Assembly (NCBI RefSeq): GCF_000007145.1
Contig: NC_003902.1
Span: 575,435-607,434, forward strand
Length of the DNA stretch: 32,000 nt
Source: Xanthomonas campestris pv. campestris str. ATCC 33913
GTDB lineage: Bacteria; Pseudomonadota; Gammaproteobacteria; Xanthomonadales; Xanthomonadaceae
Reading direction: 5' to 3'
Position numbers and translations under genes: made by a program
Notes under the pieces: model-generated
Told to the model about the DNA's origin: nothing
The model's database searches: none
The model's input: only the letters and a program-made list of their open reading frames with translations
In this document: positions 3,081-26,022 of the stretch, piece by piece
Layout: every line of letters begins with the position of its first letter
Numbering within the stretch: the stretch's first letter is position 1

Positions 3081-3089
3081 TCTCGTGTT

Positions 3090-3295: not shown

Positions 3296-3308
3296 TAGGG
3301 AACCGCCA

Positions 3309-3336: not shown

Positions 3337-3412
3337 GCATTTCGTTTTCAGCTTGTGAGCCGGGCGTCGCCGTGGCAGAGTCGGTGACAGTAGATTTTCA
3401 GGAGTCCGCATC

Positions 3413-4030
3413 GTGATCGATCCGGACGGTTTCCGGCCAAACGTCGGCATTGTGCTGATGCGTGAGGATGGTCAGGTGTTCTGGGCACGACGTGTGCGCA
3501 GGGATGGCTGGCAGTTCCCGCAAGGCGGCATGAATACCGATGAGACTCCGGTGGAAGCCATGTACCGCGAGTTGCGCGAAGAAACCGGGTTGTTGCCCGA
3601 GCATGTGGAATTGCTCGGCGCCACCCCTGGTTGGCTACGCTATCGCCTACCCAGCCGGGCGGTGCGTCGCAACGAACGCCAGGTGTGCATCGGCCAGAAG
3701 CAGGTCTGGTTCCTGCTGCAGTTCACCGGGCAGGAATCGCACCTCAAGCTCGACCATACCGACAGCCCGGAGTTCGATCACTGGCGCTGGGTGGATTTCT
3801 GGTATCCGGTGGAGCATGTGGTGATGTTCAAGCGCGGCGTGTATGCACGCGCATTGCGTCATCTCGCGCCGCTCGCCCAGACCGTGGCCGGGCCAGCAGC
3901 GGTGGGCGTGATGCCGCAGCGTGCGCTGGAAGCCTGGTTGCCGGGCAGCAGCGCAGCCGGCCACGACCGGCCGCGTAAGCGCCCACGTAAGCGCGGCGGG
4001 GTTTTGCCCGTGCGGATTAATAATGATTAA
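3413..4030 (+). CDS. rppH: RNA pyrophosphohydrolase (Nudix, RppH/NudH)
   Basis: GTG start. [56 protein letters not shown] carries the Nudix box (GGx5Ex7REx2EExG) and an RppH-like N-terminus. The tail is basic ([11 protein letters not shown]). Confidence 0.9.
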
Positions 4031-4035
4031 CGTTG
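4017..4035. promoter_or_regulatory. Candidate Fur box upstream of bfd, overlapping the last rppH codons
   Basis: The AT-rich palindrome TTAAT-AATG-ATTAA (4017-4030) stands out in a GC-rich context. AATAATGATTAAC matches the core of the Fur consensus GATAATGATAATCATTATC in 11 of 19 positions in my best alignment. It lies immediately 5' of the putative -35. Confidence 0.45.
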
Positions 4036-4038
4036 GAA

Positions 4039-4067
4039 TTGACACCTATTCTCGTTTGCGGTGCAAT
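4039..4067 (+). promoter_or_regulatory. Candidate sigma70 promoter for bfd (TTGACA-N17-TGCAAT)
   Basis: ttgaca at 4039-4044 and tgcaat at 4062-4067 with a 17-nt spacer, 43 nt upstream of the bfd GTG. Confidence 0.5.
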
Positions 4068-4109
4068 CAGTCCCGGTCTCCTCCGGACCGCCAGCACCTG
4101 ACCGATACC

Positions 4110-4319
4110 GTGTACGTCTGCATCTGTAATGGGGTCACCGACCACCAGATCCGCGAAGCGGCCGAGAACGGCTGCGCCAGCCTTGCCGAGCTGACCATGC
4201 GCACCGGCTGTGGCTCCAACTGCGGTTCCTGCCTGGAAATGGCGGGCGATTTGCTGAGCCAGGCGCATGCCAGCCGCGCATTGCCCTTGCCGATGTTGGG
4301 ATTCGCCAGCGCTGCCTGA
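4110..4319 (+). CDS. bfd: Bacterioferritin-associated ferredoxin (2Fe-2S, BFD-like)
   Basis: GTG at 4110, in frame with track ORF 3921..4319. VYVCICNGVTDHQIREAAENGCASLAELTMRTGCGSNCGSCLEMAGDLL shows the C-x-C...C-x2-C arrangement and resembles E. coli Bfd (MYVCLCNGISD...). It sits directly upstream of bfr. Confidence 0.85.
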   Translation: MYVCICNGVTDHQIREAAENGCASLAELTMRTGCGSNCGSCLEMAGDLLSQAHASRALPLPMLGFASAA

Positions 4320-4542
4320 GTCTGGTTGTTGGCGTAGGTGCTGAGGCGCCACGCTTGGAGGCAAGCAGCGTCTAATCCTCTGCGGCCGTCGCGCTTGGTA
4401 ATGCCATTGGTGGCTGCAGCGACAGCAGGCCCAGCGAGTGACGCGCCAGCGGCGCGTTCCGCAACTGATCACGATTCGCGTTCCTTCATGCGCGGCGGCA
4501 ACGCGTTAGAGTGCGGCCGGCTCACTGTCTCGGAGACATCGC

Positions 4543-5013
4543 ATGAAGGGCGATACCAAAGTCATCGAGTACCTCAACAAGGTGCTCTACAACGAACTCA
4601 CTGCGATCAACCAGTATTTTCTGCACGCCAAGATGCTGAAGAACTGGGGCCTGAAAGAACTGGCTGAGCATGAGTACAAGGAATCCATCGACGAGATGAA
4701 GCACGCCGACAAGCTGTCGGACCGCATCTTGTTCCTCGAGGGACTTCCCAATTTCCAGGCGCTGGGCAAGCTGCGCATCGGCGAGAACCCGACCGAGATG
4801 TTCCGCTGCGATCTGGCGCTTGAGCGCGAGGCGGTCGTGGTGCTGCGCGAAGCGGTGGCCTATGCGGAGACCGTCAAGGACTACGTGAGCCGCCAGCTGT
4901 TTGTGGACATCCTGGAGTCCGAAGAAGAGCACATCGATTGGCTGGAGACCCAGCTGGATCTGGTGGCGCGTATCGGCGAACCGAATTATCTGCTGACCAA
5001 GCTGGACGACTAA
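4543..5013 (+). CDS. bfr: Bacterioferritin
   Basis: 156-aa [40 protein letters not shown]..., a canonical Bfr with ferroxidase-centre residues. RBS ggaga lies 6 nt upstream. Confidence 0.95.
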
Positions 5014-7626: not shown

Positions 7627-9579
7627 TCAGAGCACCGCGTTCGTGAAGTCGAAGTCCAGCTCCTTGCCGACCGTCTGCACCAGGTTGCCCTGGATGAAGT
7701 CCACGCCGCTCATCCACATGGCGGCCGCAGCCTGCGGGTCTTCGATGCGCTGGCCGATGATCAGCAGGCCGCGCTGGTGCGCGATGTCGATCACCCCGCG
7801 CAACTCGTCGCGCACGGCCGCGTTGCCGTGTGCATCGGCGAAGCGGTTGGCCATGCGCACGAAGCTCAGCGGCAACTGGCTGAGCAGTGCGTTGGCTTCA
7901 TCGCCGGGTTCGAACTGGCTCAGGCAGAACTGCACGCCGGCCGGCATCAGGCGGGCACAGAACTGCTGCACGGTCACGGCGTGGATCAGCGCATCGTCCA
8001 GGCGCAGGTCCACGATCAGCGACTGCCCGGCCACGCCACGTTCGGTGATGGCCTTGAGCAACCAGTCGGCGAAGGCGTCGCGCGCCAGCGTGCGCGGCGA
8101 TTGCGAGACGAACAGCCGCAGCGGCGGGCTGGCGTGCTGGTACAGATGCAGCAGGCCGAGCGCGTGATCCATGACCTGCTGGTCGAGATCGGCGATGCGC
8201 CCGGCGGCTTCGGCGGCAGGGATGACCTGACCAGCCGACAGCAAGGTGCCATCGGCCTGGCGCAGCCGCAGCAGCACCTGGTATTGCGCGGTATCGCCAC
8301 CGGCCACGGCCACGATCGGCTGGTAGGCCAGTTCGAGCTGGCCTTCGACCAGGCGCAGTTGTTCCTGTTGCTCGGCCTGGCTGGGCGCCAGATAGGTCTG
8401 CACGCCGTCGCTGCGCAGGCGGGCCTGCAGTGCGGTGCGCTCGACCGCTTCCAGCGCGCTGCCGGTGTCGTCGAAGCCCAGGCCCAGCGGCGCGGCGCCG
8501 ACGGCGCAGCGCACATGCACGGATTCTTCTTCGCGCACCGGGAAGGCATGCGCAGACAGGCGTTGGCGAATCTCCAGCGCGTACGCTTCCAGGCCGGCTT
8601 CGTCCATCTCCACGCCCAGCAGCAGGAAGCTGTTGTCGTTGAGGCGCGCCAGCGGATACGGCTGGGCGACGCTGGCCAGGCGATGGCCGGCCTGGGTCAT
8701 CAGGCGTTCGTAGGCGGCGTAGCCATAACGCTCGCGCAAACCGAGCGCGCTGGCGATTTCGATGAAGAACAGGCCGCCGCTCTGCTTGCGTGCCAGTGCA
8801 TCGGCGAGCAGTTCCATGACGTGGCCGCGCGTCGGTAGCCCGGTTTCCGGATTGCTGCGCACGCTGACCTGTTCGCCGGCCTGCTGCAGCGCCTGCTGGC
8901 GCGCGCGCCGGATGCGGTTGGACACCGCGGCGATCAGGTGGCGGGGGCGGATCGGCTTGGTCAGGAAATCGTCCGCGCCGCTGTCGAGCACTTCGAACTG
9001 GCGCTCCGGATCCGGGTCGCCGGTGAGGAAGACGATCGGCAACAGCTGTTGGCCGGGTTGCTGGCGGATCAGCGTGGTCAACCGGATGCCATCGAGCTCG
9101 GGCATGTGCAGATCCATCAGGATCAGGTCCGGGTGATAGTCCTGGATCGCCTGCGGCACGCTGGCAGCGGTCATTTCGACCTGCGCATGCATGCCGGCGC
9201 CGTGCAGCACGCTCTGGGCGAACAAGGCCTGCGAGCGGTCGTCCTCGACGATCAGCACGCGATAGGGCGCGTCGGCAGCGACATTGTCAGCGCCATTGCC
9301 GCCAGCTGGCTGCGCGGCAGCGGCCGGCGCAGGTGCGCTGGAGGCTGCGCTGCGCGGCAGGCCGGCAGCGGCTTGCTGGACCGGTGGCGTGACGTTGGCC
9401 ACTGCGGCAAGCGCGGGTGCGGGAATGATCGTGGCGCTCACTGGCTCGGCGTTGTCGGCGGATGCGGCGTCGTCGGCCCAGCGGCGCCAATAGTCGGCCG
9501 GCGGGGTTTCAGCGCGCAGCGCGCGGTTACGTGTCGCGGTGTCGTCACGGGTGGAAGGAACCGGATCTCGGGCGGCCAT
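7627..9579 (-). CDS. Response regulator with REC plus degenerate GGDEF-like and degenerate EAL-like domains
   Basis: 650-aa ORF whose stop abuts the kinase start with a 0-nt gap. REC domain: RVLIVEDD...LILMDLHMPELDG...TKPI. NDNSF stands in place of GGDEF (aa 314-318, nt 8626-8640). ELAYQPIV...YQVLLRLR stands where E(A/V)LxR is expected (Q434, nt 8278-8280). SQFEPG replaces DDFGTG. Confidence 0.9.
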   Translation of the reverse strand: MAARDPVPSTRDDTATRNRALRAETPPADYWRRWADDAASADNAEPVSATIIPAPALAAVANVTPPVQQAAAGLPRSAASSAPAPAAAAQPAGGNGADNVAADAPYRVLIVEDDRSQALFAQSVLHGAGMHAQVEMTAASVPQAIQDYHPDLILMDLHMPELDGIRLTTLIRQQPGQQLLPIVFLTGDPDPERQFEVLDSGADDFLTKPIRPRHLIAAVSNRIRRARQQALQQAGEQVSVRSNPETGLPTRGHVMELLADALARKQSGGLFFIEIASALGLRERYGYAAYERLMTQAGHRLASVAQPYPLARLNDNSFLLLGVEMDEAGLEAYALEIRQRLSAHAFPVREEESVHVRCAVGAAPLGLGFDDTGSALEAVERTALQARLRSDGVQTYLAPSQAEQQEQLRLVEGQLELAYQPIVAVAGGDTAQYQVLLRLRQADGTLLSAGQVIPAAEAAGRIADLDQQVMDHALGLLHLYQHASPPLRLFVSQSPRTLARDAFADWLLKAITERGVAGQSLIVDLRLDDALIHAVTVQQFCARLMPAGVQFCLSQFEPGDEANALLSQLPLSFVRMANRFADAHGNAAVRDELRGVIDIAHQRGLLIIGQRIEDPQAAAAMWMSGVDFIQGNLVQTVGKELDFDFTNAVL

Positions 9580-13142: not shown

Positions 13143-14036
13143 ATGTTCACCACCCTGGTTGCCGTCATCGTTGCGCTCGCGCTGGGGCATGTGCTGCCTG
13201 CCCAGGTGGTGCGGCTGCGCCGTTTCGAGTGGTTTGCGCAGTGGCTGCGCCGGCTGGACAGCTACGCCGCCGGGCGCGGTGCGTGGCAGGGCCGCTATGG
13301 CGTGCTGCTGGCCTTGCTGCCGGCCCTGGCGGTGGTGCTCCTGCTGCAATGGCTGCTGGACGATGTGTGGCACGGATTTCTGGCCTTGCTGTTCGGCGTG
13401 GCGGTCTTGGCCTGGACCTGGGGCCCGCGCGATCTGGACCGCGATGTGGAAGCGGTGATCGACGCCGATGAGCCGGCGCTGCGGCGCGAGGCCATTTCGC
13501 ACCTGCAGGCGGCCGGCGGCAGCGTGCATGAAGATGCGCCATCGCTGGTGGAAGCGGTGGTGGTGAACGGCCTGCGCCGCTGGTTTGCAGTGCTGTGGTG
13601 GTTCCTGCTGCTGGGGCCGTTCGGCGCGGTGCTGTATCGGCTCACTGCGTTGGCAGTGGAAAGCCCGGTGTCGGTGTTGCTGCCGCCCCGCAACCTGGCC
13701 GGCGCGCGCTGGTTGCTGGCCGCGCTGGAATGGCCGGTGGCGCAGTTGATGACGGTGTCGATGGCGCTGGTGGGTAACTTCGACACGGTGTTCCGCGCCT
13801 GGCGCGAAGCGCATGGCAATCGCTGGTCGCTGGAGCCGCATTTTCTCGGTGCGGTGGGGCGTGCCAGCGTCAGTGCCGAGCTGCGCGAAGAAGCGCACGA
13901 CTACACGGACTCGGGCTTGGTGCCAGTGTGGCGCCGCCTGCCCGAAGTGCGCGATGCAATGAGCCTGGTGTGGCGCGTGTTGCTGTTGTGGATGGTAATA
14001 CTGGCGCTGTTGGTGATTGCCGGTTGGGTGCGCTAA
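13143..14036 (+). CDS. AmpE-like regulatory membrane protein (CobD/AmpE superfamily)
   Basis: 297-aa polytopic ORF. The N-terminus MFTTLVAVIVALALGHVL... and overall architecture resemble E. coli AmpE from memory. RBS gaggagg lies 7 nt upstream. Confidence 0.7.
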   Translation: MFTTLVAVIVALALGHVLPAQVVRLRRFEWFAQWLRRLDSYAAGRGAWQGRYGVLLALLPALAVVLLLQWLLDDVWHGFLALLFGVAVLAWTWGPRDLDRDVEAVIDADEPALRREAISHLQAAGGSVHEDAPSLVEAVVVNGLRRWFAVLWWFLLLGPFGAVLYRLTALAVESPVSVLLPPRNLAGARWLLAALEWPVAQLMTVSMALVGNFDTVFRAWREAHGNRWSLEPHFLGAVGRASVSAELREEAHDYTDSGLVPVWRRLPEVRDAMSLVWRVLLLWMVILALLVIAGWVR

Positions 14037-14090
14037 GCGGTGCGTGCATTGCCACTTGTGAGCACTGCAGAATCCGCGCGTAGCGACTTA

Positions 14091-14155
14091 GAGCAGCTAT
14101 CAAAACGACTGCGCACCCACCTGACAACTGCTCGCTACGTTTTGTTAGCCGCTCT
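14091..14155 (+). repeat. Dispersed direct repeat, short copy (65 bp)
   Basis: gagcagctATCAAAACGACTGCGCA|CCCACCTGACaACTGCTCGCtACGTTTTGTTAGCCGCTCT is near-identical to 19733-19864, except that copy carries a 67-bp internal block. The ends carry the short inverted repeat CAAAACG...CGTTTTG. Confidence 0.85.
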
Positions 14156-14269
14156 TAATAAAGCATCAACCGATCACGCAGCTGTTCTCTGTCGAGGCCT
14201 GCATGCGATTCGAACATCGCGTTCAATTTGCAGAGTTGTTGGAGCAACGATCCGATCAGAGGCGATCTG

Positions 14270-14434
14270 TTAGTCGTTGCTGCAACCAGTAATCGAAAGC
14301 TCAAGCGCATCTTCTTTGACATCAGCGAAGATCCGGCTTCCATCGGTAAACTGGATAACGAGCTCGCTGGATCGGTGGCGCCAGACCGTTTGAACAATCT
14401 TTCCTGCGAGATGCGCGGTCTGCTTCTTCTTCAA
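14270..14434 (-). CDS. Candidate small ORF (54 aa, TTG start) in a low-GC patch; coding status unresolved
   Basis: Translation (M)KKKQTAHLAGKIVQTVWRHRSSELVIQFTDGSRIFADVKEDALELSITGCSND looks more protein-like than the overlapping track ORFs 14155..14397(-) and 14228..14482(+). However, it has a non-ATG start and no clear RBS, and GC3 does not discriminate between frames (about 61% against 59%). Confidence 0.2.
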   Translation of the reverse strand: MKKKQTAHLAGKIVQTVWRHRSSELVIQFTDGSRIFADVKEDALELSITGCSND

Positions 14435-14459
14435 GTGTCACTGCGTTTTGCTTTCCGTC

Positions 14460-14870
14460 CTAGCCAGGTGCCAGCAGCGTAAACGGGTACCACGGCAGAT
14501 TCCGTGCAATCCAATACGTGGGAAGTGCCCATAGCCAAAACTTGGGTTCGGACATCACCGCCACCACCGGGGCGAACCAGCGGGCGCGCCAGCCGGCTTT
14601 CCAGGCGATCAGGCCGGGCAGGGTGAACAGCCCAAGCACTGCGGCGGGGTTCATGGCGAAGGCGCCGGGCAGATCGAAATGCACCAGCGCATACAACGCG
14701 CGGGTCATGCCGCAACCGGGGCAGTAGCACCCGGTGACGGCGCGGAACATGCAGGGCGGGAACGGGCTGTTGCTCGCGTTCGGGTCGAAGCGATACAGCA
14801 GCGACACGCCGACGGCGGCCACGCTGGTGGCCGCCCCCAGTCCAAGCCAGTGGCGTGGACGCAGCTCCAT
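14460..14870 (-). CDS. DUF2752-like membrane protein
   Basis: Internal ATG at 14870 of track ORF 14460..15107 gives 136 aa: MELRPRHWLGLGAATSVAAV...CMFRAVTGCYCPGCGMTRAL... The CPGCGxTRA motif is typical of DUF2752. Its start overlaps the CD225 stop by 1 nt (TAATG). Confidence 0.8.
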   Translation of the reverse strand: MELRPRHWLGLGAATSVAAVGVSLLYRFDPNASNSPFPPCMFRAVTGCYCPGCGMTRALYALVHFDLPGAFAMNPAAVLGLFTLPGLIAWKAGWRARWFAPVVAVMSEPKFWLWALPTYWIARNLPWYPFTLLAPG

Positions 14871-15214
14871 TACTGCATGTGCTGCAACTGCTGCATGTAG
14901 TCCATGTAGCCCTGCATGCCACCGGTGGCGACCATGCCGATGTTGATCAGCAGGCCGATACCGGCCAGCACGGAGGTCACGATGCACCAGGTCTTGGCGG
15001 TGTTGGAGGCACGACGCGCGCCGTCGATGTCGCCCTGGTTGAGCAGGTTGTTGACCTTGCTGGCGAACACGATCGCCACGATGCCGGTGATCAGCGCCGG
15101 GCAGCACAGGCAGAAGCCGATCACGGTGGACACGATGGCCCAGATCAGGTGATTGGGAACCGGGCCGGGCGCGGCGGTGGACGGGGTGTGGATCGGCGGT
15201 GGGACGGCACTCAT
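14870..15214 (-). CDS. CD225/dispanin-family (IFITM-like) small membrane protein
   Basis: ATG at 15214 with aaggag 7 nt upstream gives 114 aa. A Pro-rich N-terminus is followed by NHLIWAIVSTVIGFCLCCPALITGIVAIVFASKVNNLLNQGDIDGARRASNTAKTW, which is the CD225 signature as I remember it. Confidence 0.8.
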   Translation of the reverse strand: MSAVPPPIHTPSTAAPGPVPNHLIWAIVSTVIGFCLCCPALITGIVAIVFASKVNNLLNQGDIDGARRASNTAKTWCIVTSVLAGIGLLINIGMVATGGMQGYMDYMQQLQHMQ

Positions 15215-15548: not shown

Positions 15549-17471
15549 TCAGGCGTGCTCCTGGCGTAGTGCACGTACCTGCTGTTCGAGCAACGCGGCG
15601 CTGGCCTGATCGCCGGCAATTGCCGGGCCGGCCACCACTTCAATCTGCGCCCGTATCCGCCGCGGCACGCGCATGCGGCCCAGGCGGGTGTCGCGCCGAC
15701 TCCACATGCTCGACCACATGCCGCGCAGCGCCATCGGGATCACCGGCACCTGGCGCCGCTCGAGAATCTTTTCCACACCCGATTTGAACGGCGCGATCTC
15801 GCCGTCCTTGGTCAATGCGCCTTCGGGAAAGATGCAGACCAGCTCGCCGTCGGCCAGCGCCGCATCGATGCGGTCGAAAGCCTGTTGCATGAGTGCCGGG
15901 TCTTCGCGCGCGCCGGCGATCGGGATGGCCTTGGCGGTGCGGAAGATCCAGCGCATCACCGGGATGCGGAAGATCTTGTAGTACATGACAAAGCGCACCG
16001 GGCGCGGAATCACCGCCGAGAGGATCAGCGCGTCCATGTAGCTGACGTGGTTGCACACCAGCAGTGCGGCGCCTTCGTCGGGCACGTGGCGATCGATCTC
16101 GTGCGCACGCAGCCGGTACAACACGCTCACCAGCACCCAGCTGAGGAAGCGCATCAGGAATTCGGGCACCAGGGTGAAGATCCACAGCGCCACCAGCGTG
16201 TTGGCGATTGCCAGCGCCAGGAACACCTGCGGAATGCTCAACCCGGGCAGTGGAATGCGCACCCCGAACAGCACCAGCTGCGGCAGCTGCAGGGCGATAC
16301 CGATGATGGCCGCGGCGACGATGAATAACGAGTTCTGGATGTTGAGCCCGGCGATCACGCGCGACAGCTCGGCCTTGGGCGTGCGGCTCTGGATCAGCGC
16401 GAACAGCGGCACCACGAACAGGCCAGTGAACAGACCGATGCCGACCAGGTCCACGATCAGCCGCACGCTGCCGGCCTGCTGCACGAACTGGCCGATCGAC
16501 AGGTCGTTTGCCAGTGCTGCACCCGGACGCGCGAAATACAGATCCAGCAGGAACGCGCTGATGCCGAACGCGCCCAGCGGCACCAGGCCGATTTCCACGG
16601 TGCGCCCGGACAGCCGCTCGCACAGCAGCGAGCCGACGCCGGTGCCGATCGAAAACAGCGCCAGCGCGAACACGTACAGGTCCTGCTGGCCGCCGAGATT
16701 GAGCTGCGCATAGGTGGGCAGCTGCGCGGTCAGTACGGTGCCGATGAACCAGAACCACGACACTCCGAGCACCGCGTTGCGCACCGCCGGCGTGCGCCGG
16801 GTCAGGCGCATGATCGCGCGCGATTCGGGGATGGGGTTCCAGTTGATTTTCAACTCCGGCGCGCCGGCATCGACCTTGGGCACCAGCCGCGCGACCAGGT
16901 TGCCGGTGACGGCAATGGCAATGACTGCGGTGGCAGCGGCCACCGGGCCGTGGCTGCCGGCGATCTGGAAGATCAAGCCGCCGAAGATCATGCCGCACAG
17001 GATCGAGATCGAGGTGCCCATCTCGACCAGGCCATTGCCGCCGGTGAGTTCCTCGGGCTTCAGCACCGAGGGCAGGATCGAATACTTCACCGGCCCGAAC
17101 AGCGTGGATTGCAGGCCGGTGCAGAACAGCGCGATCAGCAGGATCACCATGTTCTCGGTGATGAAGCCCACCGCGGCCAGCGACATGATCGCGATCTCCA
17201 TGGTGGTGGTGATCACGATGAGTTTCTGCTTTTCCAGTTTCTCGGCGATCTGCCCGGCCAGGGCGGAGAACAGGAAGTAGGGCAGGATGAACAGCGCCGG
17301 CGCCAGATTCGTGTAGAGCGTGCGTTGCGCCGCGTCGATGCCCAGGTAGAACAGCAGCCCGATGATGGCTTGCCGGTAGACGTTGTCGTTGAAGGCGCCC
17401 AGCGCCTGCACGGTAAAAAACGGCAAAAAGCGGCGCTGCCTGAGCAGGGCGAACTGACTGTGACCGGACAT
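15549..17471 (-). CDS. MFS lysophospholipid-transporter-like domain fused to a PlsC-type acyltransferase domain
   Basis: 640-aa ORF. The N-terminal roughly 400 aa are polytopic MFS (FLPFFTVQALGAFNDNVYRQA..., LplT-like). The C-terminus carries the acyltransferase HX4D box (NHVSYMDAL) and FPEGALT. RBS aaggag. Confidence 0.88.
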   Translation of the reverse strand: MSGHSQFALLRQRRFLPFFTVQALGAFNDNVYRQAIIGLLFYLGIDAAQRTLYTNLAPALFILPYFLFSALAGQIAEKLEKQKLIVITTTMEIAIMSLAAVGFITENMVILLIALFCTGLQSTLFGPVKYSILPSVLKPEELTGGNGLVEMGTSISILCGMIFGGLIFQIAGSHGPVAAATAVIAIAVTGNLVARLVPKVDAGAPELKINWNPIPESRAIMRLTRRTPAVRNAVLGVSWFWFIGTVLTAQLPTYAQLNLGGQQDLYVFALALFSIGTGVGSLLCERLSGRTVEIGLVPLGAFGISAFLLDLYFARPGAALANDLSIGQFVQQAGSVRLIVDLVGIGLFTGLFVVPLFALIQSRTPKAELSRVIAGLNIQNSLFIVAAAIIGIALQLPQLVLFGVRIPLPGLSIPQVFLALAIANTLVALWIFTLVPEFLMRFLSWVLVSVLYRLRAHEIDRHVPDEGAALLVCNHVSYMDALILSAVIPRPVRFVMYYKIFRIPVMRWIFRTAKAIPIAGAREDPALMQQAFDRIDAALADGELVCIFPEGALTKDGEIAPFKSGVEKILERRQVPVIPMALRGMWSSMWSRRDTRLGRMRVPRRIRAQIEVVAGPAIAGDQASAALLEQQVRALRQEHA

Positions 17472-17538
17472 GCGGACTCCTTCGCGACGCGCGCAGCCTA
17501 GCAGGCTTCAGCGCCGGGCTGGGAGCGCCCGCTGCGGC

Positions 17539-18441
17539 TCAGCGCACCGGGCGTCGCGCCGGGCGCTGCTGCTCCACCTGCGCGCGCAGCAGGGTGATGA
17601 AGGCGCGCGTGGCCGGGGTCGGGTCCGGCCGCCAGACCGCATAGGTGAGGAAGCGGAAGTGCTCCTTCAGCGCCAGCGCCACCACGCCACGCATGGCGCC
17701 GGCCATGGTCTGCGGCACGATGCCCACGCCCAGCCCGGCGGCGACCAGCTCGCGTACCAGATCGGCATGGGTGACTTCGTATTGCAGGCGCTGGTGCAGG
17801 CCGGCCTGGTCGAAGGCCGCGTCGATGATGCCGCGCACGCCGGCGCCGGGAATCAGCCCGGCCATCGGCTCGTCGTCCAGCTCGGCCAATGCCACGCGCT
17901 TGCGGCTGGCGAAGCGGTGGCCGGGCGCGACGATCAGCGCCAGTGCTTCTTCGTGCAGCAGCAGGCGCTGCTCCGGCACCACCACCTGCGGGCCGACGCC
18001 GACCAGGGCCAGATCCAGCCGGCCTTCGCGCAGGTCGTGCAGCAGGGCATCGCTCATGGCCGTGCGCAGGTGCACATCCACGTGCGCATGCGCGCTGCGG
18101 AAGCGGTGCAGCAGCGCCGGCACCTGCACCGTGGTGAGCGAGGAGATCTGCCCCAGCGTGAGCCGGCCGCGCACGGTGCCCAGCGCCTGGGCCATTTCTT
18201 CATGCAGGCGCTCGGCCGCGCGCAGCGTCTGCCGCGCGTTGTGCAGGAACACCTCGCCGGCGGCGGTGGGGCGTACCTGGCGGGTGCCGCGTTCGAACAG
18301 GCGCGCGCCCAGCAGCTCCTCGATCTTGGCGACCTGGTGGCTGAGTGCAGATTGCACGGTGTTGCAGCGGCGCGCGGCCGCAGTGAAGCCGCCTTCGTCG
18401 GCCACCGCCACGGCGAACTCCAGCTGGCGCAGGGTCAACAT
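17539..18441 (-). CDS. LysR-family transcriptional regulator
   Basis: ATG at 18441 gives 300 aa. The N-terminal wHTH is MLTLRQLEFAVAVADEGGFTAAARRCNTVQSALSHQVAKIEELLGARLFER. It is divergent from the MFS gene. Confidence 0.9.
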   Translation of the reverse strand: MLTLRQLEFAVAVADEGGFTAAARRCNTVQSALSHQVAKIEELLGARLFERGTRQVRPTAAGEVFLHNARQTLRAAERLHEEMAQALGTVRGRLTLGQISSLTTVQVPALLHRFRSAHAHVDVHLRTAMSDALLHDLREGRLDLALVGVGPQVVVPEQRLLLHEEALALIVAPGHRFASRKRVALAELDDEPMAGLIPGAGVRGIIDAAFDQAGLHQRLQYEVTHADLVRELVAAGLGVGIVPQTMAGAMRGVVALALKEHFRFLTYAVWRPDPTPATRAFITLLRAQVEQQRPARRPVR

Positions 18442-18541
18442 GCGATCTCGGAACAAGATGGGAACAGTGAAAACAATACATTGGAAAGATGGGTCTGTGC
18501 CGACCACACTGCGCCCCATCCACTCCACACAGGTTGCTGCC

Positions 18542-19732
18542 ATGACGTCGGAACCGATTTCCCACCCACCGCTGCCGCGCCGGCTGGTACTGCTGATGGC
18601 CGCGGCCACCGGCCTGGCCGTGGCCAGCAATTACTACGCGCAACCGCTGCTGGAAACCCTGGCGCAAGCGTTCCAGATCCAGGTGCGCACCGCCGGGGCG
18701 GTGGTGACCGCCGCACAGCTGGCCTACGCGGCCGGCCTGTTGCTGCTGGTGCCGCTGGGCGACCGGCTGGAGCGGCGCGGGCTGATCGTGGGCTTGTTTG
18801 TGCTCAGTGCGTTGGGCCTGCTGGTGAGCGCGGCCTCGCACAGTTTCGGCATGTTGCTGGCCGGCACGATCGTCACCGGCGCCAGCTCGGTGGCGGCGCA
18901 GATCCTGGTGCCGTTCGCGGCCACCCTGGCCGCCCCGCAGGAGCGCGGGCGGGTGATCGGCACGGTGATGAGCGGGCTGTTGCTGGGCATCCTGCTGGCC
19001 CGCACCGCCGCCGGGCTGCTGGCCGGTGTCGGTGGCTGGCACACCGTGTACTGGATTGCCGCGGCTCTGCTGCTGCTCACCGCCGGCCTGTTGTGGCGCG
19101 GGCTGCCGCGCCATCCAGGCAATGCGCAACTGTCGTATCCGCAGTTGGTGGGCTCGGTGCTGACGCTGCTGCGCGACGATGCGGTGCTGCGTTCGCGCTC
19201 GGTGCTGGGTGGGCTGCTGTTTGCCGGCTTCAGCATGTTCTGGACCACGCTGGCGTTCCTGCTGTCCGGGCCGGGCTATGGCTATGGCACTGCGGTGATC
19301 GGCTTGTTTGGACTGATCGGTGCTGCTGGCGCGTTGGCGGCCAACCGCTCCGGGCACTGGTCCGACCATGGGCACGGCGATCGCGTCAGCTGGGGCGGGC
19401 TGGTGATGCTGCTGCTGTCGTGGGGGCTGCTGGCCTTCGCACCGCACTCGATCGTGCTGCTGATCATCGGCGTGCTGTTGCTGGATATCGCGGTGCAGGG
19501 CGTGCATATCGCGAACCAAAGCGTGATCTATCAGCGCAATCCGCATGCACGCAACCGCATCACCTCCGCGTATATCACCTGCTATTTCATCGGTGGCGCG
19601 GTGGGCTCCACCTTGGGCACTGCGGCGTATGCGCAGGCCGGCTGGAACGGGGTGGTGATCGGCGGCGCGGTGTTGGCGCTGGCGGCGCTGGGCTGGGTGG
19701 CACTCAGTGTGGCGCGTGGCAGCTGGAAGTAA
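18542..19732 (+). CDS. MFS transporter
   Basis: ATG at 18542 in the frame of track ORF 17645..19732 gives 396 aa with about 12 hydrophobic segments. An MFS motif-A-like sequence is present (VPLGDRLERRG). Confidence 0.85.
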   Translation: MTSEPISHPPLPRRLVLLMAAATGLAVASNYYAQPLLETLAQAFQIQVRTAGAVVTAAQLAYAAGLLLLVPLGDRLERRGLIVGLFVLSALGLLVSAASHSFGMLLAGTIVTGASSVAAQILVPFAATLAAPQERGRVIGTVMSGLLLGILLARTAAGLLAGVGGWHTVYWIAAALLLLTAGLLWRGLPRHPGNAQLSYPQLVGSVLTLLRDDAVLRSRSVLGGLLFAGFSMFWTTLAFLLSGPGYGYGTAVIGLFGLIGAAGALAANRSGHWSDHGHGDRVSWGGLVMLLLSWGLLAFAPHSIVLLIIGVLLLDIAVQGVHIANQSVIYQRNPHARNRITSAYITCYFIGGAVGSTLGTAAYAQAGWNGVVIGGAVLALAALGWVALSVARGSWK

Positions 19733-19864
19733 GCGCAGCGATCAAAACGACTGCGCAGCCGCCAGGCGGGCGCGGCCGGTGCTCGGAATCGGCATGTACC
19801 CCCATACACTCCGGTTCCTCCGCACCCACCTGACGACTGCTCGCGACGTTTTGTTAGCCGCTCT
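19733..19864 (+). repeat. Dispersed direct repeat, long copy (132 bp, includes 67-bp extra block 19758-19824)
   Basis: gcgcagcgATCAAAACGACTGCGCA[67 bp]CCCACCTGACgACTGCTCGCgACGTTTTGTTAGCCGCTCT. It has the same orientation as 14091-14155. The indel is bounded by the cgca/cgca microhomology. The copy starts immediately after the MFS stop codon. Confidence 0.85.
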
Positions 19865-20043: not shown

Positions 20044-22287
20044 TTAAGCGCCCTGCAGCGCCTTGGGCGCGGTGGTCTCGACCGGGGCAGCGGTGACCGC
20101 CACCGCCGCGGCGCGGAGTTTGGGCAGCAGGCGCAAGGTCAGCGCGAGTTGGTCGCGCACCAGGCGTTGTTTGGGTGGTAGTTGCACGGCGTGCTGTTCG
20201 AGTGCATCGGCCATGGCCAGTTCTTCGGTTTCATCGTGCACGGGTAGCACCTGGCGCAGGCTGAGTGCGTTGGCGATCTCGCCGAGTGTGCGCTGCAGGT
20301 AATCGCCGGCCTGGGCAATGCCGGCGTCGTGTTCGCCATCGAGCGCGGCCCGGTGCGCGCCTAGCGCCGACAGATACCCCAGCAGCGTGTTGGACAGCGC
20401 CAGAAAGCGGAAGCCCGCCTCCAGGTTGCGGCGGTAGCGGCCGGGTTCGCGCAACATGTTCGAGAGCGCTACCGACAGCGCAGCATCGGCGTTGTGCATG
20501 TCGCGCCGGGCGATGCGGTACGGCAGATCATCACGCATGCCGCTGGCGTACTGCTCCAGTACTTGCGCCAGATAGCGCGCGCAGCTGGCCAGCACGGTGG
20601 CCATCACCTGGTTGAGGCGGCGGCCTTGCCAGTCCGGCAGGATCAGGAACGAGGCGGCAGCGGCAATGGCGCAGCCGATCACGGTGTCGATCAGGCGCGG
20701 CCAGATCAGCACGAAGCCATCGCCGAGCAGGTTGAAGCAAAACAGTGCCATCACCGTGATGCCGGCGGTGGCCAGCATGTAGCGGTCGGTGCGGGTGATG
20801 AAGAAGATCAGCGCCGCGGCCAGTGCGAGCAGCAACTGCACCTCGGTGCCGGGGAACAACTGCATCAACGCCCAGGTGGCGATCAGGCCGATCAAGGTGC
20901 CGGCAATGCGCTGCACCAGTCGCAGCCGCGTGGCGCCGTAGTTGGGCCGGCACACAAACGCGGTGGTGAGCAGGATCCAGTAGCCGTTGTCGGCATGGAT
21001 CGATTGCATCACCGCGTAGCCCACCACCAGCGCGATGGCCATGCGCAGGCCGTGGCGGAACAGCACCGAGCCGGGCGTGAGTTGCTGGCCAAGCCGTGCG
21101 GCCATCTCGCGCACGGTGTGCGGCGATGAATCGCGCAGGCGGGTGTCGAGGTTGTCGCTGGTGGAATCGAATTGCGCCGCTTCCGACAGCCGCCGCTCGA
21201 TGGTCTGCAGGTTGGTGACCAGCAATTCCAGTGCGCCGAGCAGGCGGGTGAGCGCGGGATCGGCGCGGGCGTGCAGGTAGTCCAGCGACTGGCGCAGATC
21301 GTCGGTGGCCAGGCGACTGTGATCGCCGTAATCGAACGGCTGGCGCAGCCGGATCGCCTCGCCCAGCGCGGCGCAGGCCTTGCCCTGTAGCGCGAGCAGG
21401 CGCTGGCAGCGGTACAGCACATCGCTGTGGAAGAACGCGTCGGTCAGGGCTTCGTACGGGTAGTGCGAGGAGCTGGCGCGTTCGTGGAATTCCTGCGCCA
21501 TGTAGTACAGCCGGAAATACAGCCCGGACTGCACGCCCGGCCGGCCGGAGCGGCCGAAGCGGCTCATGATCGCGGTCTTGGCCGCATTGAGCGCGCCCAC
21601 CACCTTGGCGTTCTGTTCGGCCAGCGCCAGCCGGCGTGCATGCAGGTCGCTTTGCCGCACCGGTTCGAACAGGTCGGCCTTGAGCGTGAGGTAGCGGCCC
21701 AGTTCGAAGAACAGCCGCGACAGCCGCTCGCGCACCGGGCGATTGGCGAACAGGATGGTCCACAGGATCGACAGCACGCCGTACCAGGTGGCGCCGGCCA
21801 GCAGCAGCGCTGCGCCATGCCAGGCGATGCGCGGATCGTGGCTGCCGTGCTGGTCCATGCCGATCATGGCGTAGATCGACAAGGCCACCGTGGCCTGCGC
21901 GATCGAGGCATAGCGCTCGCCCAGCGCGCCCAGCAGGGTGAGCGAGAAGGTGGCCACGGCCATGCCGGTGACGAACGCCAGCGGATACGGGAACAGCACC
22001 ACCACCGCGGCCGCAGCCGCAGCGAAGCACAACAGCGAGAGCAGTACCGATTTGCTGCGGCCCAGCCAGTTGTCGTCGGTCTCGGCGATGGCGCTGGCGA
22101 TCGCGCCCAGGAACAGCGCCGGCACCGCGGTGAGCTGCTGCCAGTGCCAGCACAGGCCCATGGCCACCGCCAGCGCGATGAACACACGCAGGCCATAGCT
22201 GGCCTTTTCATGGGCCCACAGGCGGCTGAGGCGGGATTCGAACGAAGTGGTGGCCACGGTCTCTGAAGGGCAAGCGTGCCCGGGCAT
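20044..22287 (-). CDS. YccS/YhfK-type (FUSC-like) integral membrane protein
   Basis: Track ORF 20044..22302, called here from ATG 22287 (GTG 22302 is an alternative). Two blocks of hydrophobic helices are separated by a large soluble region, and the N-terminus ...RLWAHEKASYGLRVFIALAVAMGLCW resembles YccS. Confidence 0.8.
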   Translation of the reverse strand: MPGHACPSETVATTSFESRLSRLWAHEKASYGLRVFIALAVAMGLCWHWQQLTAVPALFLGAIASAIAETDDNWLGRSKSVLLSLLCFAAAAAAVVVLFPYPLAFVTGMAVATFSLTLLGALGERYASIAQATVALSIYAMIGMDQHGSHDPRIAWHGAALLLAGATWYGVLSILWTILFANRPVRERLSRLFFELGRYLTLKADLFEPVRQSDLHARRLALAEQNAKVVGALNAAKTAIMSRFGRSGRPGVQSGLYFRLYYMAQEFHERASSSHYPYEALTDAFFHSDVLYRCQRLLALQGKACAALGEAIRLRQPFDYGDHSRLATDDLRQSLDYLHARADPALTRLLGALELLVTNLQTIERRLSEAAQFDSTSDNLDTRLRDSSPHTVREMAARLGQQLTPGSVLFRHGLRMAIALVVGYAVMQSIHADNGYWILLTTAFVCRPNYGATRLRLVQRIAGTLIGLIATWALMQLFPGTEVQLLLALAAALIFFITRTDRYMLATAGITVMALFCFNLLGDGFVLIWPRLIDTVIGCAIAAAASFLILPDWQGRRLNQVMATVLASCARYLAQVLEQYASGMRDDLPYRIARRDMHNADAALSVALSNMLREPGRYRRNLEAGFRFLALSNTLLGYLSALGAHRAALDGEHDAGIAQAGDYLQRTLGEIANALSLRQVLPVHDETEELAMADALEQHAVQLPPKQRLVRDQLALTLRLLPKLRAAAVAVTAAPVETTAPKALQGA

Positions 22288-22374
22288 TATTGCCGCAGGC
22301 ACGCGCCGCCGGTGTGCAGGCCGGCTAGTCCTTTGTCAGTAGGCGGCGTGGCCGCCGCCGCTGCACGCCATGCA

Positions 22375-23670
22375 TCAGGCCTGCGCGTCGCGCTCGCGGG
22401 CGATCGCGCGCCAGCCGATATCGCTGCGCTGGAAGGCGCTGGCCCACTGGATCGGCTGCAGGCCGGCATAGGCGGTGCGTTGCGCGTCCAGCACGCTGTC
22501 GCCCAGCGCGGCCACGCACAGCACGCGGCCACCGGCGCTGATCACCTGCCCTTCGGCATTCAACGCAGTGCCGGCGTGGAAGACCTTGGCGCTGGCCGGC
22601 ACCGCGTCCAGGCCGGTGATGACCTCGCCGGTGACCGGGGTTTCCGGATAGGGCTTTGCGGCGATGACCACGCCCAGCGACGGGCGCGGATCCCACTGCG
22701 CCTGCGCGGCGTCGAGGGTGCCGTCGATGGCCGCTTCCACCAGATCCACCAGATCCGATTGCAGGCGCAGCATCACCGGCTGGGTTTCCGGGTCGCCGAA
22801 GCGCACGTTGAATTCGATCACCTTGGGCGCGCCGTGCGCATCGATCATCAGCCCGGCGTAGAGGAAGCCGGTGAATGGCACGCCGTCGGCGATCATGCCC
22901 TGCACAGTCGGCTCGACCACCTCGCGCATCACCCGCGCATGCACCTCGGGCGTGACCACCGGCGCCGGCGAATACGCGCCCATGCCGCCGGTGTTCGGGC
23001 CGGTGTCACCATCGCCCACGCGCTTGTGGTCCTGGCTGGTGGCCATCGGCAAGGCGTGTGTGCCGTCGACCATCGAGATGAAGCTGGCTTCTTCGCCGTC
23101 CAGAAATTCTTCGATCACCACGCGTGCGCCGGCATCGCCGAACGCATTGCCCGAGAGCATGTCGCGCACCGCGTCTTCGGCCTCGCCCAGCGTCATCGCC
23201 ACGATCACGCCCTTGCCGGCGGCCAGGCCGTCGGCCTTGACCACGATCGGTGCGCCCTTCTCGCGCACGTAGGCCAGCGCGGCATCCACCTCGGTGTGGA
23301 CCGCGTAGTAGGCGGTGGGAATGCCGTGGCGGGCCAGGAAGTCCTTGGCGAACGCCTTGCTACCTTCCAGCTGCGCTGCCTTGGCGGTGGGCCCGAAGAT
23401 GCGCAGGCCAGCGGCGTGGAAGCGGTCGACCACGCCCAGCACCAGCGGCACTTCCGGGCCGACCACGGTGAGCGCAACGGCCTCGCGCTGTGCCAGCGCG
23501 AGCAGGCCATCCAGGTCATCGACCTTGATCGCCACGTTGCGGCACTTGGCTTCGGTGGCGGTGCCGGCATTGCCCGGTGCGACGAGCACCTCGCTCACGC
23601 GAGCGGACTGCGCGATCTTCCAGGCCAGGGCATGTTCACGGCCGCCGGAGCCGATGACGAGGATTTTCAT
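22375..23670 (-). CDS. purD: Phosphoribosylamine-glycine ligase
   Basis: 431-aa ORF MKILVIGSGGREHALAWKIAQS..., a canonical PurD. Confidence 0.97.
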   Translation of the reverse strand: MKILVIGSGGREHALAWKIAQSARVSEVLVAPGNAGTATEAKCRNVAIKVDDLDGLLALAQREAVALTVVGPEVPLVLGVVDRFHAAGLRIFGPTAKAAQLEGSKAFAKDFLARHGIPTAYYAVHTEVDAALAYVREKGAPIVVKADGLAAGKGVIVAMTLGEAEDAVRDMLSGNAFGDAGARVVIEEFLDGEEASFISMVDGTHALPMATSQDHKRVGDGDTGPNTGGMGAYSPAPVVTPEVHARVMREVVEPTVQGMIADGVPFTGFLYAGLMIDAHGAPKVIEFNVRFGDPETQPVMLRLQSDLVDLVEAAIDGTLDAAQAQWDPRPSLGVVIAAKPYPETPVTGEVITGLDAVPASAKVFHAGTALNAEGQVISAGGRVLCVAALGDSVLDAQRTAYAGLQPIQWASAFQRSDIGWRAIARERDAQA

Positions 23671-23674
23671 TAAA

Positions 23675-24373
23675 TTACTTTCCTAAGCCAAGGAGCTTTA
23701 AGGTAGGTGCTGCAAGTTGCTGAAAACCAGTTACTGAGGTGACGATATTTGCTAGCACTTCAGCTGCCTGTGCAAATTTTTCACCCAGGCCTTTTTCGCG
23801 AATTTCCGGGTTGGCGGCAAAGTCGTAAATTCCTGATTTAAACTGGTCAAGTACATCTTCGTTCCCAGTCAATGAGTAATCATCGATAGCAGCCAGAAGT
23901 GTCCGGATTCGCCTAATGACAGCAACTTTTGCATTTCCCGATAAATCTGAATTCTTAATTTCCTCGATTGCTTCGAGCAATAGAGACTTGGCGCGCATCA
24001 ATTCTTCGTAATCAATTGCTTTATCGCCATTTGTTAGATGGACAACTCTTGATTGCATTTTCAAGTAATTGATGGTGTGAGAGTCGATGTGAGCGTGAAA
24101 ATCTGTCCAGTTACGCGCTGCGGCAGCGCTGAGTCCGGTATAGAGCTGACTTCTCCAATGATTGACTGCGTCGGCTTGCTCTGGGTCAGCCGCGAGGACT
24201 TCTTGCGCTGCCGTATCGATCAGTTTGTAGAAAAGTCCGATTTTTCGATGGATTTCAAGTGATTCAGCTTCTCCAAATATTCTTTTCCATCCATCGATGA
24301 AGCTTGCATGTAATCGCAAGTCTCTCGCGGCGATGACAATCTTTAATAAGTGATTCGTAGCAGAGTTATTCAT
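23675..24373 (-). CDS. Low-GC orphan protein, predicted all-alpha and soluble, of unknown function, inserted between purH and purD
   Basis: 232 aa from ATG 24373 ([25 protein letters not shown]...); the track ORF starts 12 nt upstream at TTG 24385. GC is about 40-50% in three 60-nt lines I counted, against about 67% in the flanking purD sequence. An uninterrupted 699-nt frame in AT-rich DNA is unlikely by chance. I recognised no family. Confidence 0.7.
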
Positions 24374-24381
24374 CAAAAATC

Positions 24382-25965
24382 TCAATGCCGGAAGTGGCGC
24401 ACGCCGGTGAACACCATCGCCAGACCGTGTTCGTCGGCGGCGGCGATCACTTCGCCATCGCGCATCGAGCCGCCCGGCTGGATCACCGCCTGGATGCCGG
24501 CCGCCGCTGCGGCATCGATACCGTCGCGGAACGGGAAGAATGCATCCGATGCCATCACCGAGCCGGCCACCGTAAGCTTGGCTTCTTCGGCCTTGAGCGC
24601 GGCGATCTTGGCGCTGACCACGCGGCTCATCTGCCCGGCGCCCACACCAATGGTGCGGCTGTCCTTGGCATACACGATCGCGTTGGATTTGACGTACTTG
24701 GCCACGCGCCAGGCAAACAGCAGATCGGCCAGTTCGGCATCGCTGGGTGCACGCTTGGTCACCACGCTCAGCTCGCCCAGGGACATGCCGCGGTTGTCGG
24801 CCGACTGCATCAGCAGGCCAGAGCCGATCCGCTTGGTGTCGTAGTTGTTGAGGCCCGCGCCGTGCGGGATCTTGAGCACGCGCACGTTGGCCTTCTTGGT
24901 CGCGTAGTCGAGCGCGCCGGGCTCGTAGTCCGGGGCGATCAGCACTTCGACGAACTGGCGGTCCAGGATGGCCTTGGCGGTGGCCGCATCCAGCGTGCGG
25001 TTGAACGCCAGGATGCCGCCGAACGCGCTGGTGGGGTCGGTGGCATAGGCCAGCTCATAGGCATCGCCGCAGGCCACGCCCACCGCCACGCCGCACGGGT
25101 TGGCGTGCTTGACGATCACGCAAGCCGGCGCATCGAACTGGCGCACGCATTCCCACGCCGCATCGGCATCGGCCAGGTTGTTGTAGCTCAGTTCCTTGCC
25201 CTGCAGCTGCTGGAAGGTCGCCAGCGTGCCCGGCACCGGATACAGGTCGCGGTAGAACGCGCCGGACTGGTGCGGGTTCTCGCCGTAACGCAGGTCCATC
25301 ACCTTGATGAAGTTGGAATTGATCTGCGCCGGGAACGGGCTACGCGTGGGCACGCTCTCCGCACTGTCGGCCACGGCCGAGAGATAGTTGCTGATCGCCG
25401 CGTCGTACTGCGCCACGCGGTTGAACGCGGCCACCGACAGCGCAAAGCGCTGGGCCGCCGAGAGCTGGCCGTTGTTGGCCTCCAGCTCGGCCAGCAGGTC
25501 GGCGTATTGCGCCGGGTCGGTGGCCACCGCCACGCGCGCGAAATTCTTCGCCGCGCTGCGCAGCATCGCCGGGCCGCCGATGTCGATGTTTTCCACCGCA
25601 TCGGCCAGCGTGCAGTCGGCCTTGGCAGTGACCGACTCGAACGGATACAGGTTGAGCACCAGCAGGTCGATCGGCGCGATGCCGTGTTCGGCCATTACTG
25701 CTTCGTCGACACCGGCGCGGCCGAGCAGGCCGCCGTGCACCAGCGGGTGCAGGGTCTTGACGCGGCCGTCCATCATTTCCGGGAAACCGGTCAACTCGGC
25801 TACGTCCTTCACCGGCAGGCCCGCATCGCGGATTGCCTTGGCGGTGCCGCCGGTGGACAGCAGCTCGACATTGCGCGCCACCAGCGCGCGGGCCAGGTCA
25901 ATCAGGCCGGTTTTGTCGGAAACGGAGAGCAGGGCCCGGCGCACGGGCAGGAAATCAGAGGCCAT
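24382..25965 (-). CDS. purH: Bifunctional AICAR transformylase / IMP cyclohydrolase
   Basis: 527-aa ORF ...[47 protein letters not shown]...FTGVRHFRH, a canonical PurH. Confidence 0.97.
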
Positions 25966-26022
25966 GGGTGAAAGGGCAGTCGTTGCGGGGCAGCCGATAT
26001 TGTAGGCTGCGCCAGCGCTCGA

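Follow-up and report, generated by a model that had tools for sequence, protein, structure and literature searches.

The genome of Xanthomonas campestris pv. campestris ATCC 33913 carries, between the purine-biosynthesis genes purH and purD, a single AT-rich gene, which raises the question of whether it is a fresh insertion or a long-standing resident of the operon, and what it might do there. We analyzed this gene within a 32-kb stretch of the chromosome (NC_003902.1, positions 575,435 to 607,434), referred to below as the window. The 232-residue open reading frame (ORF) in question is called X, the place between purH and purD is called the slot, and the compared loci bear numbers preceded by the letter L. 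Judged from these comparisons, X is an accessory cassette locked to this locus and did not arrive by a fresh random insertion. In the explanation that we favor, a gene of the phrog_15904 family would have entered the slot of an ancestral xanthomonad, and the X branch would have been tied to the slot since then. X would pass from strain to strain, and also between species, by homologous recombination events in which purH and purD would serve as the arms and X itself as the core without homology. In X. campestris, X is the alternative allele to a native gene encoding a 281-residue putative lipoprotein. The X alleles, presumably far older than their hosts and incongruent with them, may be kept polymorphic by frequency-dependent selection.

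Gene X and its junctions with purH and purD

The features of the locus are listed below, with positions counted in the window.

24382..25965, minus strand: purH (AICAR transformylase/IMP cyclohydrolase), the upstream flank and putative left recombination arm, TGA at 24384-24382
23675..24373, minus strand: gene X, ATG at 24373-24371 and TAA at 23677-23675, a chromosomal phrog_15904 member predicted to be all-alpha and soluble, 232 residues
22375..23670, minus strand: purD (GAR synthetase), the downstream flank and putative right recombination arm, ATG at 23670-23668
23670..24381, minus strand: the swapped cassette, beginning directly behind the purH TGA and including base 1 of the purD start codon, as delimited by comparing X-type with lipoprotein-type junctions
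23678..23684, minus strand: AGGAAAG, a Shine-Dalgarno-like, putative purD signal in the last X codons (G-K), 7 nt before the purD ATG
23603..24468, minus strand: the minimal identical tract of 866 nt, made up of the cassette with 87 nt from the 3' end of purH and 68 nt from the 5' end of purD (1498-2363 from the purH start)

The initial annotation had described an ORF of 232 residues and about 45% guanine plus cytosine (GC) in the purH-purD spacer, and its description of the junctions is accurate throughout. X lies on the minus strand with a GC content of 44.5%, its ATG follows the purH TGA after 8 nt, its TAA precedes the purD ATG by 4 nt (TTTA), and the AGGAAAG motif is found within its last codons. 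The GC content of X compares with 67.0% for purH and 69.3% for purD, and the GC content at third codon positions (GC3) is 0.42, compared with 0.88 and 0.87, respectively. X is the deepest GC trough of the window. An in-frame TTG (24385-24383), which overlaps the purH stop (TTGA), would yield a 236-residue product beginning with MRFLMNN and is used by one database entry (P0181). We do not favor this start, as the alignment of the orthologues begins at the ATG at 24373.

The X protein terminates with the sequence GLGK, the codons of which contain AGGAAAG. Similar GGNAAR motifs are present at orthologous X-purD junctions, where the 4-nt spacing is kept or the two genes overlap; in L113, the stop codon of the X relative overlaps the purD ATG. 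The X allele of L117 ends with GLGKDP though it does not adjoin purD, and the conservation of G-L-G-K in such a position indicates a feature of the protein as well as a possible ribosome-binding site. Translation of purD is likely to initiate at the ATG with the Shine-Dalgarno-like motif, both of which are brought by the cassette.

Scanning purH-X-purD revealed no sigma-70-like promoter, no intrinsic terminator, and no Rfam element, neither riboswitch nor other RNA. Because of the tight spacing, purH, X and purD probably share one transcript, and X presumably lacks a promoter of its own and is transcribed with the two flanking genes. Nothing contradicts the co-transcription with purine genes proposed in the initial annotation, which we continue to infer. 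The codon-adaptation-index-like value of X is 0.31, compared with 0.80 for native genes, and 55 of its 232 codons (24%) are rare, compared with 6 of 431 (1.4%) in purD. This rare-codon, AT-rich coding sequence probably holds the output of X protein low.

By all indications from the alignments, X is a genuine gene and not a chance ORF. Nine protein clusters with 58-100% identity align with X from end to end and share 73 invariant residues, and full-length orthologues are found at 41-83% identity. Where the synonymous divergence (dS) is measurable, the ratio of nonsynonymous to synonymous divergence (dN/dS) amounts to 0.074 (window and L005) and 0.057 (L008 and L011). These alignments show strong purifying selection, acting on the X protein itself. 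The cluster of the window protein also includes four 206-residue variants (P0182, P0185, P0186 and P0188), each from one to three contigs of read-derived assemblies, which carry frameshifts at four points within the last ~60 codons and all finish in one common alternative frame. Misread A/T runs could account for these variants, as could rare alleles with a disrupted frame.

Alleles of the slot, their spread and their age

The states of the slot in X. campestris were obtained by looking up the exact PurH protein of the window. Species-level presence or absence rests on this look-up and a handful of named genomes, and a scan of genome contigs with PurH sampled gammaproteobacteria broadly instead of covering every Xanthomonas species. 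Comparison of the purH-purD junction, which the initial annotation had suggested for presence/absence polymorphism, revealed that X. campestris strains with identical PurH carry either X (L105-L109 and L111) or the gene for the 281-residue protein (L103, L104, L110 and L112). When similar, undisplayed places are counted, about 10 of the ~20 identical-PurH places have X and about 10 have the lipoprotein gene. As seen from the window and L105 aligned with L103 and L104, the two alleles part right after the purH TGA and rejoin at the second base of the purD start, the first base of which is A in X-type and T in lipoprotein-type sequences. In X. campestris, purD starts with ATG next to X and with TTG next to the lipoprotein gene, and TTG is also found in X. 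vasicola. The slot allele thereby alters the translation start signals of an essential gene.

By eye, a signal peptide and a lipobox-like cysteine can be recognized in the 281-residue protein, its gene has native GC content and a codon-adaptation-index-like value of 0.80, and one source labels the protein as "Exported protein" for strain B100. Homologues reside in the same slot in X. vasicola (78-81% identity), in Stenotrophomonas (~50%) and in L003, which suggests that the putative lipoprotein gene is an old resident. In Stenotrophomonas, the slot can be empty (L070, with a 64 bp gap), or contain only the lipoprotein gene (L016 and L022) or only X (L008 and L011). Both genes occur together in L003 (positions 6716-7901), in the order of lipoprotein gene, 100-residue ORF and X, and in L117, where X precedes the lipoprotein gene. 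In L013, X is followed by a 135-residue lipoprotein-like ORF (6296-6703) with 40% similarity to one in Luteimonas (L017). Pfam did not match any of the scanned putative lipoproteins and small slot ORFs, including the 100-residue ORF of L003, for which a likeness to the N-terminus of RhuM is therefore not claimed. X is absent from X. vasicola, from Stenotrophomonas L016, L022 and L070, and from Luteimonas and Arenimonas. The slots of Chiayiivirga and Luteimonas (the L017 and L064 gaps) encode antiporter-like membrane proteins of 360-411 residues, and those of more distant gammaproteobacteria hold ORFs of native GC content, the products of which resemble, by eye, a membrane antiporter, methyltransferases and an LpxA-like protein. 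The purH-purD site is generally permissive and not a recognized defence island.

The variability within X. campestris was counted over 11 sequences, seven of which are of the X type. Not a single one of the 699 nucleotides of X varies among these seven sequences, which represent at least four flank haplotypes. Across the 11 sequences, purH varies at 39 sites, necessarily synonymous ones since the look-up required an identical PurH, and purD varies at 84; X-type strains differ pairwise by as many as 22 sites in purH and 48 in purD, and the lipoprotein alleles differ from each other by 15-20 nt. From the divergence of the flanks, 8-14 differences in X would be expected for most pairs, and the probability of finding none is 3e-4 to 8e-7, with most pairs at 1e-5 to 1e-6. 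An invariant X on at least four flank haplotypes points to a recent spread by homologous recombination. The tract of identity between X-type strains with differing flanks extends over 866-2481 nt, of which 866 nt are common to all seven. L105, which carries X, and L103, which carries the lipoprotein gene, differ in purD at only five sites, all within the first 165 nt. Similarly, L108 (X) and L104 (lipoprotein gene) agree in their purH 3' haplotype at every site but 1574. Public data contain the exact X protein on 475 contigs, essentially as a single sequence, and 62 distinct sequences from different pathovars make up the lipoprotein cluster. Such a pattern is characteristic of a young X allele that would have moved repeatedly among X. 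campestris backgrounds via recombination in purH and purD. The cassette contains no recombinase or mobility gene, and the spacers of 8 and 4 nt leave no space for recombination sites. A gene without mobility machinery appears to behave like a mobile element here, using two conserved essential genes as arms while being entangled with the start of purD.

Statements on gene context refer to relatives with readable surroundings, a set distinct from the alleles of X. phaseoli, X. euvesicatoria and pv. begoniae. All members of the X subfamily and the next relatives in this set lie between purH and purD (L001-L013, L113 and L117). L001 and L002 are X. campestris, and L003-L013 are metagenomic xanthomonads or metagenome-assembled genomes. 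According to PurH identity, the hosts of L003 and L011 belong to the S. maltophilia complex, those of L008 and L117 are other Stenotrophomonas-like bacteria, and those of L005 and L013 are other Xanthomonadaceae. The L117 allele (50% identity), the single new allele from a metagenome scan, and the L113 relative (41%) extend the occupancy of the slot to low identities. The X subfamily was not found among the viral contigs of IMG/VR.

The precise wedging of X into the operon, which the initial annotation had taken as an insertion event, did not take place here: Xanthomonadaceae have long had the order purH-X-purD, which is kept by relatives of as little as 41% identity, and the present genome probably imported it ready-made by homologous recombination in purH and purD. 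L003 and L011 illustrate the age of the alleles. Between the two loci, dS is 0.18 for purH and 0.26 for purD, and the proportions of nonsynonymous and synonymous differences in X (pN and pS) are 0.28 and 0.86, the latter being saturated. Over the genome pairs compared, X has a pS of 0.62-0.86 and its flanks have one of 0.16-0.39. The C-termini of PurH are 100% identical in L003, L008 and L011, yet the X protein of L003 is only 53-54% identical to those of the other two and 62% identical to the Xanthomonas allele. Such divergence amid identical PurH C-termini suggests that deep allelic lineages segregate at the slot without following the host phylogeny.

Every X allele has a GC3 of 0.42-0.54 beside flanking genes with 0.83-0.94, in every host. 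Donors for recombination need the same purH-X-purD layout, and no gene of the X subfamily was found elsewhere or in viruses, so X was presumably resident in high-GC xanthomonads throughout. Low GC content is, on this comparison of alleles, a maintained property of X and not a clock of recent arrival. Of the recent horizontal origin proposed in the initial annotation, the recent spread within X. campestris holds, and composition as evidence of recency does not; alleles saturated at synonymous sites and still AT-rich speak against reading the unameliorated composition as short residence. Bacterial mutation is AT-biased and gene conversion GC-biased, and on this background rest two explanations for the persistent AT-richness. 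It may be selected, either for low expression or for silencing of the H-NS type. Alternatively, the cassette may escape GC-biased gene conversion, because heteroduplex cannot form within a stretch that has no counterpart in the other allele. Low GC content is thus no proof of recent transfer, and the locus offers a test bed for the causes of GC-richness (codon selection, silencing and biased gene conversion). The two common slot alleles of X. campestris differ in the exported lipoprotein, in X and in the purD start, and provide a practical strain marker; they could also be relevant to the fitness of strains and to typing or therapy with phages.

The phrog_15904 family and possible roles of X

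The initial annotation had recognized no family for X and had called it an orphan. The former remains true for curated families, as searches of Pfam, NCBIfam and PADLOC (PADLOC-DB v2.0.0) with X returned none; a sequence profile search of the PDB returned nothing, and Pfam and NCBIfam gave only noise for 100 relatives of X. X is not an orphan, though. An exhaustive profile search yielded 430 representative proteins with E<=1e-3, of which 162 have E<=1e-10; nearly all of the 430 are 230-250 residues long. Most superfamily members have a lower GC content than their hosts. X matches the hidden Markov model (HMM) of phrog_15904 (PHROGs v4, "unknown function") with E=3.3e-8, residues 52-222 aligning with profile positions 61-233 of 244, and 82 of 100 superfamily members match the same profile. 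Profile comparison by hhalign of the X subfamily with a 244-residue protein from a P2 hotspot, itself a bona fide phrog_15904 member (E=4.7e-169 to the HMM), gave a probability of 96% (E=4e-9, 27% identity over 174 columns). On the strength of these profile matches, X does belong to phrog_15904.

The AlphaFold2 model of X from 32 homologues is wholly alpha-helical (pLDDT 86.7, pTM 0.77) and supersedes an earlier model from nine sequences (pLDDT 67.7). X has a pI of 6.1 and no transmembrane segment, with a maximum Kyte-Doolittle average of 0.98 over 19 residues. The helical and soluble protein anticipated by the initial annotation is thereby borne out. The Foldseek comparison, likewise suggested there, was productive in one database: BFVD contained one credible match, an uncharacterized myovirus protein (probability 1.0, TM 0.62-0.66).

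More distant relatives (17-31% identity) are solitary genes at unrelated sites. One, of 244 residues, is encoded in the P2-like Yersinia phage GMS190, where it is flanked by gpQ (portal) and gpA (replication), and an Escherichia coli O55:H7 prophage has a relative at the same position. At this P2 site, the relative is the sole cargo-sized gene, beside a 68-residue hypothetical ORF and a DUF3850 gene. The gpA-gpQ interval is a validated anti-phage hotspot of P2 (Rousset et al., 2022; PMC9122126), and WP_001461844.1 from E. coli appears in the table of hotspot arrangements without a given function; that arrangement is not reported as tested (PMC9122126). At the analogous P4 hotspot, six of eight randomly picked unknown loci protected against phages (PMC13586616). 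On IncF plasmids, relatives lie directly behind vapBC, near ccdAB and pifCA. Three such regions, from plasmids of Salmonella, Enterobacter and E. coli, carry the relative after vapB-vapC on the same strand, in two cases with a gap of ~30 nt:

L095, 5095-6513: vapBC-linked relative on an IncF plasmid
L122, 3293-4711: vapBC-linked relative on an IncF plasmid
L120, 3099-4516: vapBC-linked relative on an IncF plasmid

Riding at the tail of another operon suggests itself as a recurring habit of phrog_15904 relatives. Other relatives adjoin an integrase, a resolvase or IS21, and further ones follow lnt or are found near ispH in X. translucens. The latter (L099, 8001-8741) is a very distant paralogue of 246 residues with ~20% identity and long intergenic spacers, from which it follows that Xanthomonas genomes can carry superfamily members outside the purH-purD slot.

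What, then, could X do? We consider a single-protein role in conflict, such as exclusion of phages or mobile elements or a counter-measure to it, the leading candidate, with a likelihood somewhat short of even and with the genomic context as its basis. Purifying selection within deep, incongruent lineages, presence/absence at intermediate frequency and rapid recent spread are suggestive of such a role, as are the persistently low GC content and the relatives carried in plasmid accessory regions and at a phage hotspot validated for defence. The defence, addiction or phage-derived function floated in the initial annotation, still a speculation, gains backing from the relatives at the gpA-gpQ site and behind vapBC. 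Variable occupancy between core genes is typical of defence-hotspot cargo, and the slot displays it with X, the lipoprotein gene, both in either order, the 135-residue gene, or nothing. A broader reading, which we regard as possible but doubtful, is that phrog_15904 constitutes a new single-gene family against phages or mobile elements with an unseen all-alpha fold, one branch of which has been hard-wired into purH-purD and kept as trans-species allelic lineages. If this were true, the hard-wiring might let the level or activity of X report the transcription, translation or purine status of the host, and the lasting AT-richness of X would be a natural experiment for telling mutation bias apart from GC-biased gene conversion at a genomic GC content of 67%. 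In any event, X is an easily testable candidate for an uncharacterized family with at least 430 representatives and no structural relative in the PDB.

Several observations weigh against a conflict role. The other occupants of the slot are putative lipoproteins, antiporter-like and methyltransferase-like proteins, not defence genes, and recognized defence systems were not found among the co-occupants. PADLOC produced scattered single matches among 100 relatives, the best being AbiTi with 1.5e-5 in one member, and none was consistent. Foldseek detected no structural neighbor of the X model in the PDB (best E 0.6, TM up to ~0.3). X has no catalytic motif and no partner gene, and no member of phrog_15904 has a demonstrated function; literature searches retrieved no paper on X and no main-text mention of WP_001461844. 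Finally, even the relative with 41% identity is found with purine genes, and so strict a link might instead stem from a role connected with purines.

Such a role, in which X would act as an accessory or regulator of the purine pathway by binding PurH or PurD or by sensing ZMP/AICAR or another intermediate, appears unlikely to us. It would agree with the slot association of alleles from 100% down to 41% identity, with the strong purifying selection and with the X-purD spacing kept at 4 nt or overlapping. A core gene of the operon would, however, be present wherever purH-purD is, and X is patchy: it occupies about half of the X. campestris places, is missing from X. vasicola and several Stenotrophomonas, and trades places freely with a putative lipoprotein gene unrelated to it. 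X and purD are not adjacent in L117 and L013, where a further gene lies between them. Moreover, remote relatives, which reside in phages and plasmids and beside IS elements or integrases, have no purine gene in their vicinity, and the deep allelic divergence within one genus is not expected of a metabolic helper.

We also give little weight to the possibility that X is a selfish or near-neutral passenger without benefit for the host, which would be retained because it holds the Shine-Dalgarno-like motif and ATG of purD, making imprecise loss lethal, and would spread by hitch-hiking with its flanks. The purD start-codon base and motif within the cassette, the lack of mobility genes, the short recombination tracts and the rare frameshifted 206-residue variants in read-derived assemblies are all in line with it. 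A passenger would hardly show a whole-protein dN/dS of 0.06-0.07, keep 73 residues invariant among alleles of 58-100% identity and have its exact protein on 475 contigs, and the clean replacement by the lipoprotein allele and the empty slot of L070 demonstrate how easily X can be lost.

Alternatively, a side effect of the swap rather than X itself could be selected, which we think improbable: either better translation of purD (ATG and Shine-Dalgarno-like motif instead of TTG without a clear one), or the loss of the exported lipoprotein, for example as a phage receptor or a plant-recognized antigen. The different purD starts next to X and next to the lipoprotein gene in X. campestris and X. vasicola, the "Exported protein" label in B100 and the rapid spread of X across haplotypes would fit. 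Selection of this kind leaves the purifying selection on X and its upkeep over deep time unexplained, though, X and the lipoprotein gene occur together in L003 and L117, and plain deletion is viable (L070, 64 bp gap).

A homing-like drive, in which X would cleave the allele lacking it and enter through repair of the break, with short tracts of co-conversion, would match one and the same insert at one site in conserved genes, the short common flanking tracts, the low GC content and the patchy distribution, but is very improbable given that neither X nor 100 relatives have a LAGLIDADG, GIY-YIG, HNH, PD-(D/E)xK or other Pfam domain, that the all-alpha fold has no nuclease-like neighbor, and that relatives occupy many unrelated sites.

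Elsewhere in the window, a few features deserve mention. The Xanthomonas small RNA sX9 of Rfam is located at 19794-19859 on the plus strand, between the ORF at 17470-19833 and a FUSC-family gene, above the gathering score (57.6 bits, E=5.5e-8). Genes for tRNA-Gln(CTG) and tRNA-Met(CAT) at 3090-3295 on the minus strand, followed by a NUDIX-domain ORF (3413-4030), lie in a stretch of mildly lower GC content (0.58-0.61, ~2800-5000). A second, shallow GC dip (0.55) at ~14000-14600 is located beside a DUF2752 ORF (14460-15107, minus strand) and a weak CobD/CbiB-like ORF (13143-14036). Opposite purD and purH, antisense ORFs of 465 residues (22276-23673, plus strand) and 528 residues (24385-25971, plus strand) are stop-poor shadows typical of high-GC genes, not evidence of overlapping genes.

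Comparison with known systems

Some familiar single-gene systems resemble X only superficially. X is not a type II toxin-antitoxin or addiction module, being a single gene with no partner and no toxin or antitoxin domain of Pfam or NCBIfam; the vapBC-linked plasmid relatives are likewise a third gene beside vapBC and not a member of the toxin-antitoxin pair. Nor is X a free-standing homing endonuclease, for it has neither a nuclease domain nor a neighbor with a nuclease fold. Integron gene cassettes are promoterless single ORFs read from an upstream promoter, as is probably the case for X. However, the 4 nt between the X stop and the purD ATG leave no room for attC, the neighbors are housekeeping genes, and no integrase is nearby. 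The T-even exclusion protein Tin of P2 (253 residues) is the product of a single gene of similar size and a resident of the phage hotspot where a relative of X sits, but homology of X to Tin (AAD03308.1) was dismissed, with an hhalign probability of 0.1% and a BLASTP E=7.

The closest likeness is with the phage and plasmid members of phrog_15904 (WP_001461844.1 and the 244-residue protein of GMS190), which are homologous to X, ~235-245 residues long, encoded by a single gene and of lower GC content than their hosts. These members are cargo of mobile elements and appear free-standing, whereas the X subfamily is chromosomal and bound to one slot in a biosynthetic operon. Like the cargo of the gpA-gpQ hotspot of P2 (PMC9122126), X is an exchangeable insert between conserved genes. 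The P2 site is a known defence site, unlike the purH-purD slot. Hotspots flanked by core genes, such as the core defence hotspots of Pseudomonas aeruginosa (PMC10250203), share with the slot the alternative cargo, the recombination in the flanks and the polymorphism within species. In contrast to them, the slot is a single-gene position in an essential operon with spacers of 8 and 4 nt, and its cassette supplies the start signals of purD. X may therefore be seen as exchangeable, core-gene-flanked cargo that has apparently been reduced to one promoterless gene in an essential operon and tied to its slot over deep time.

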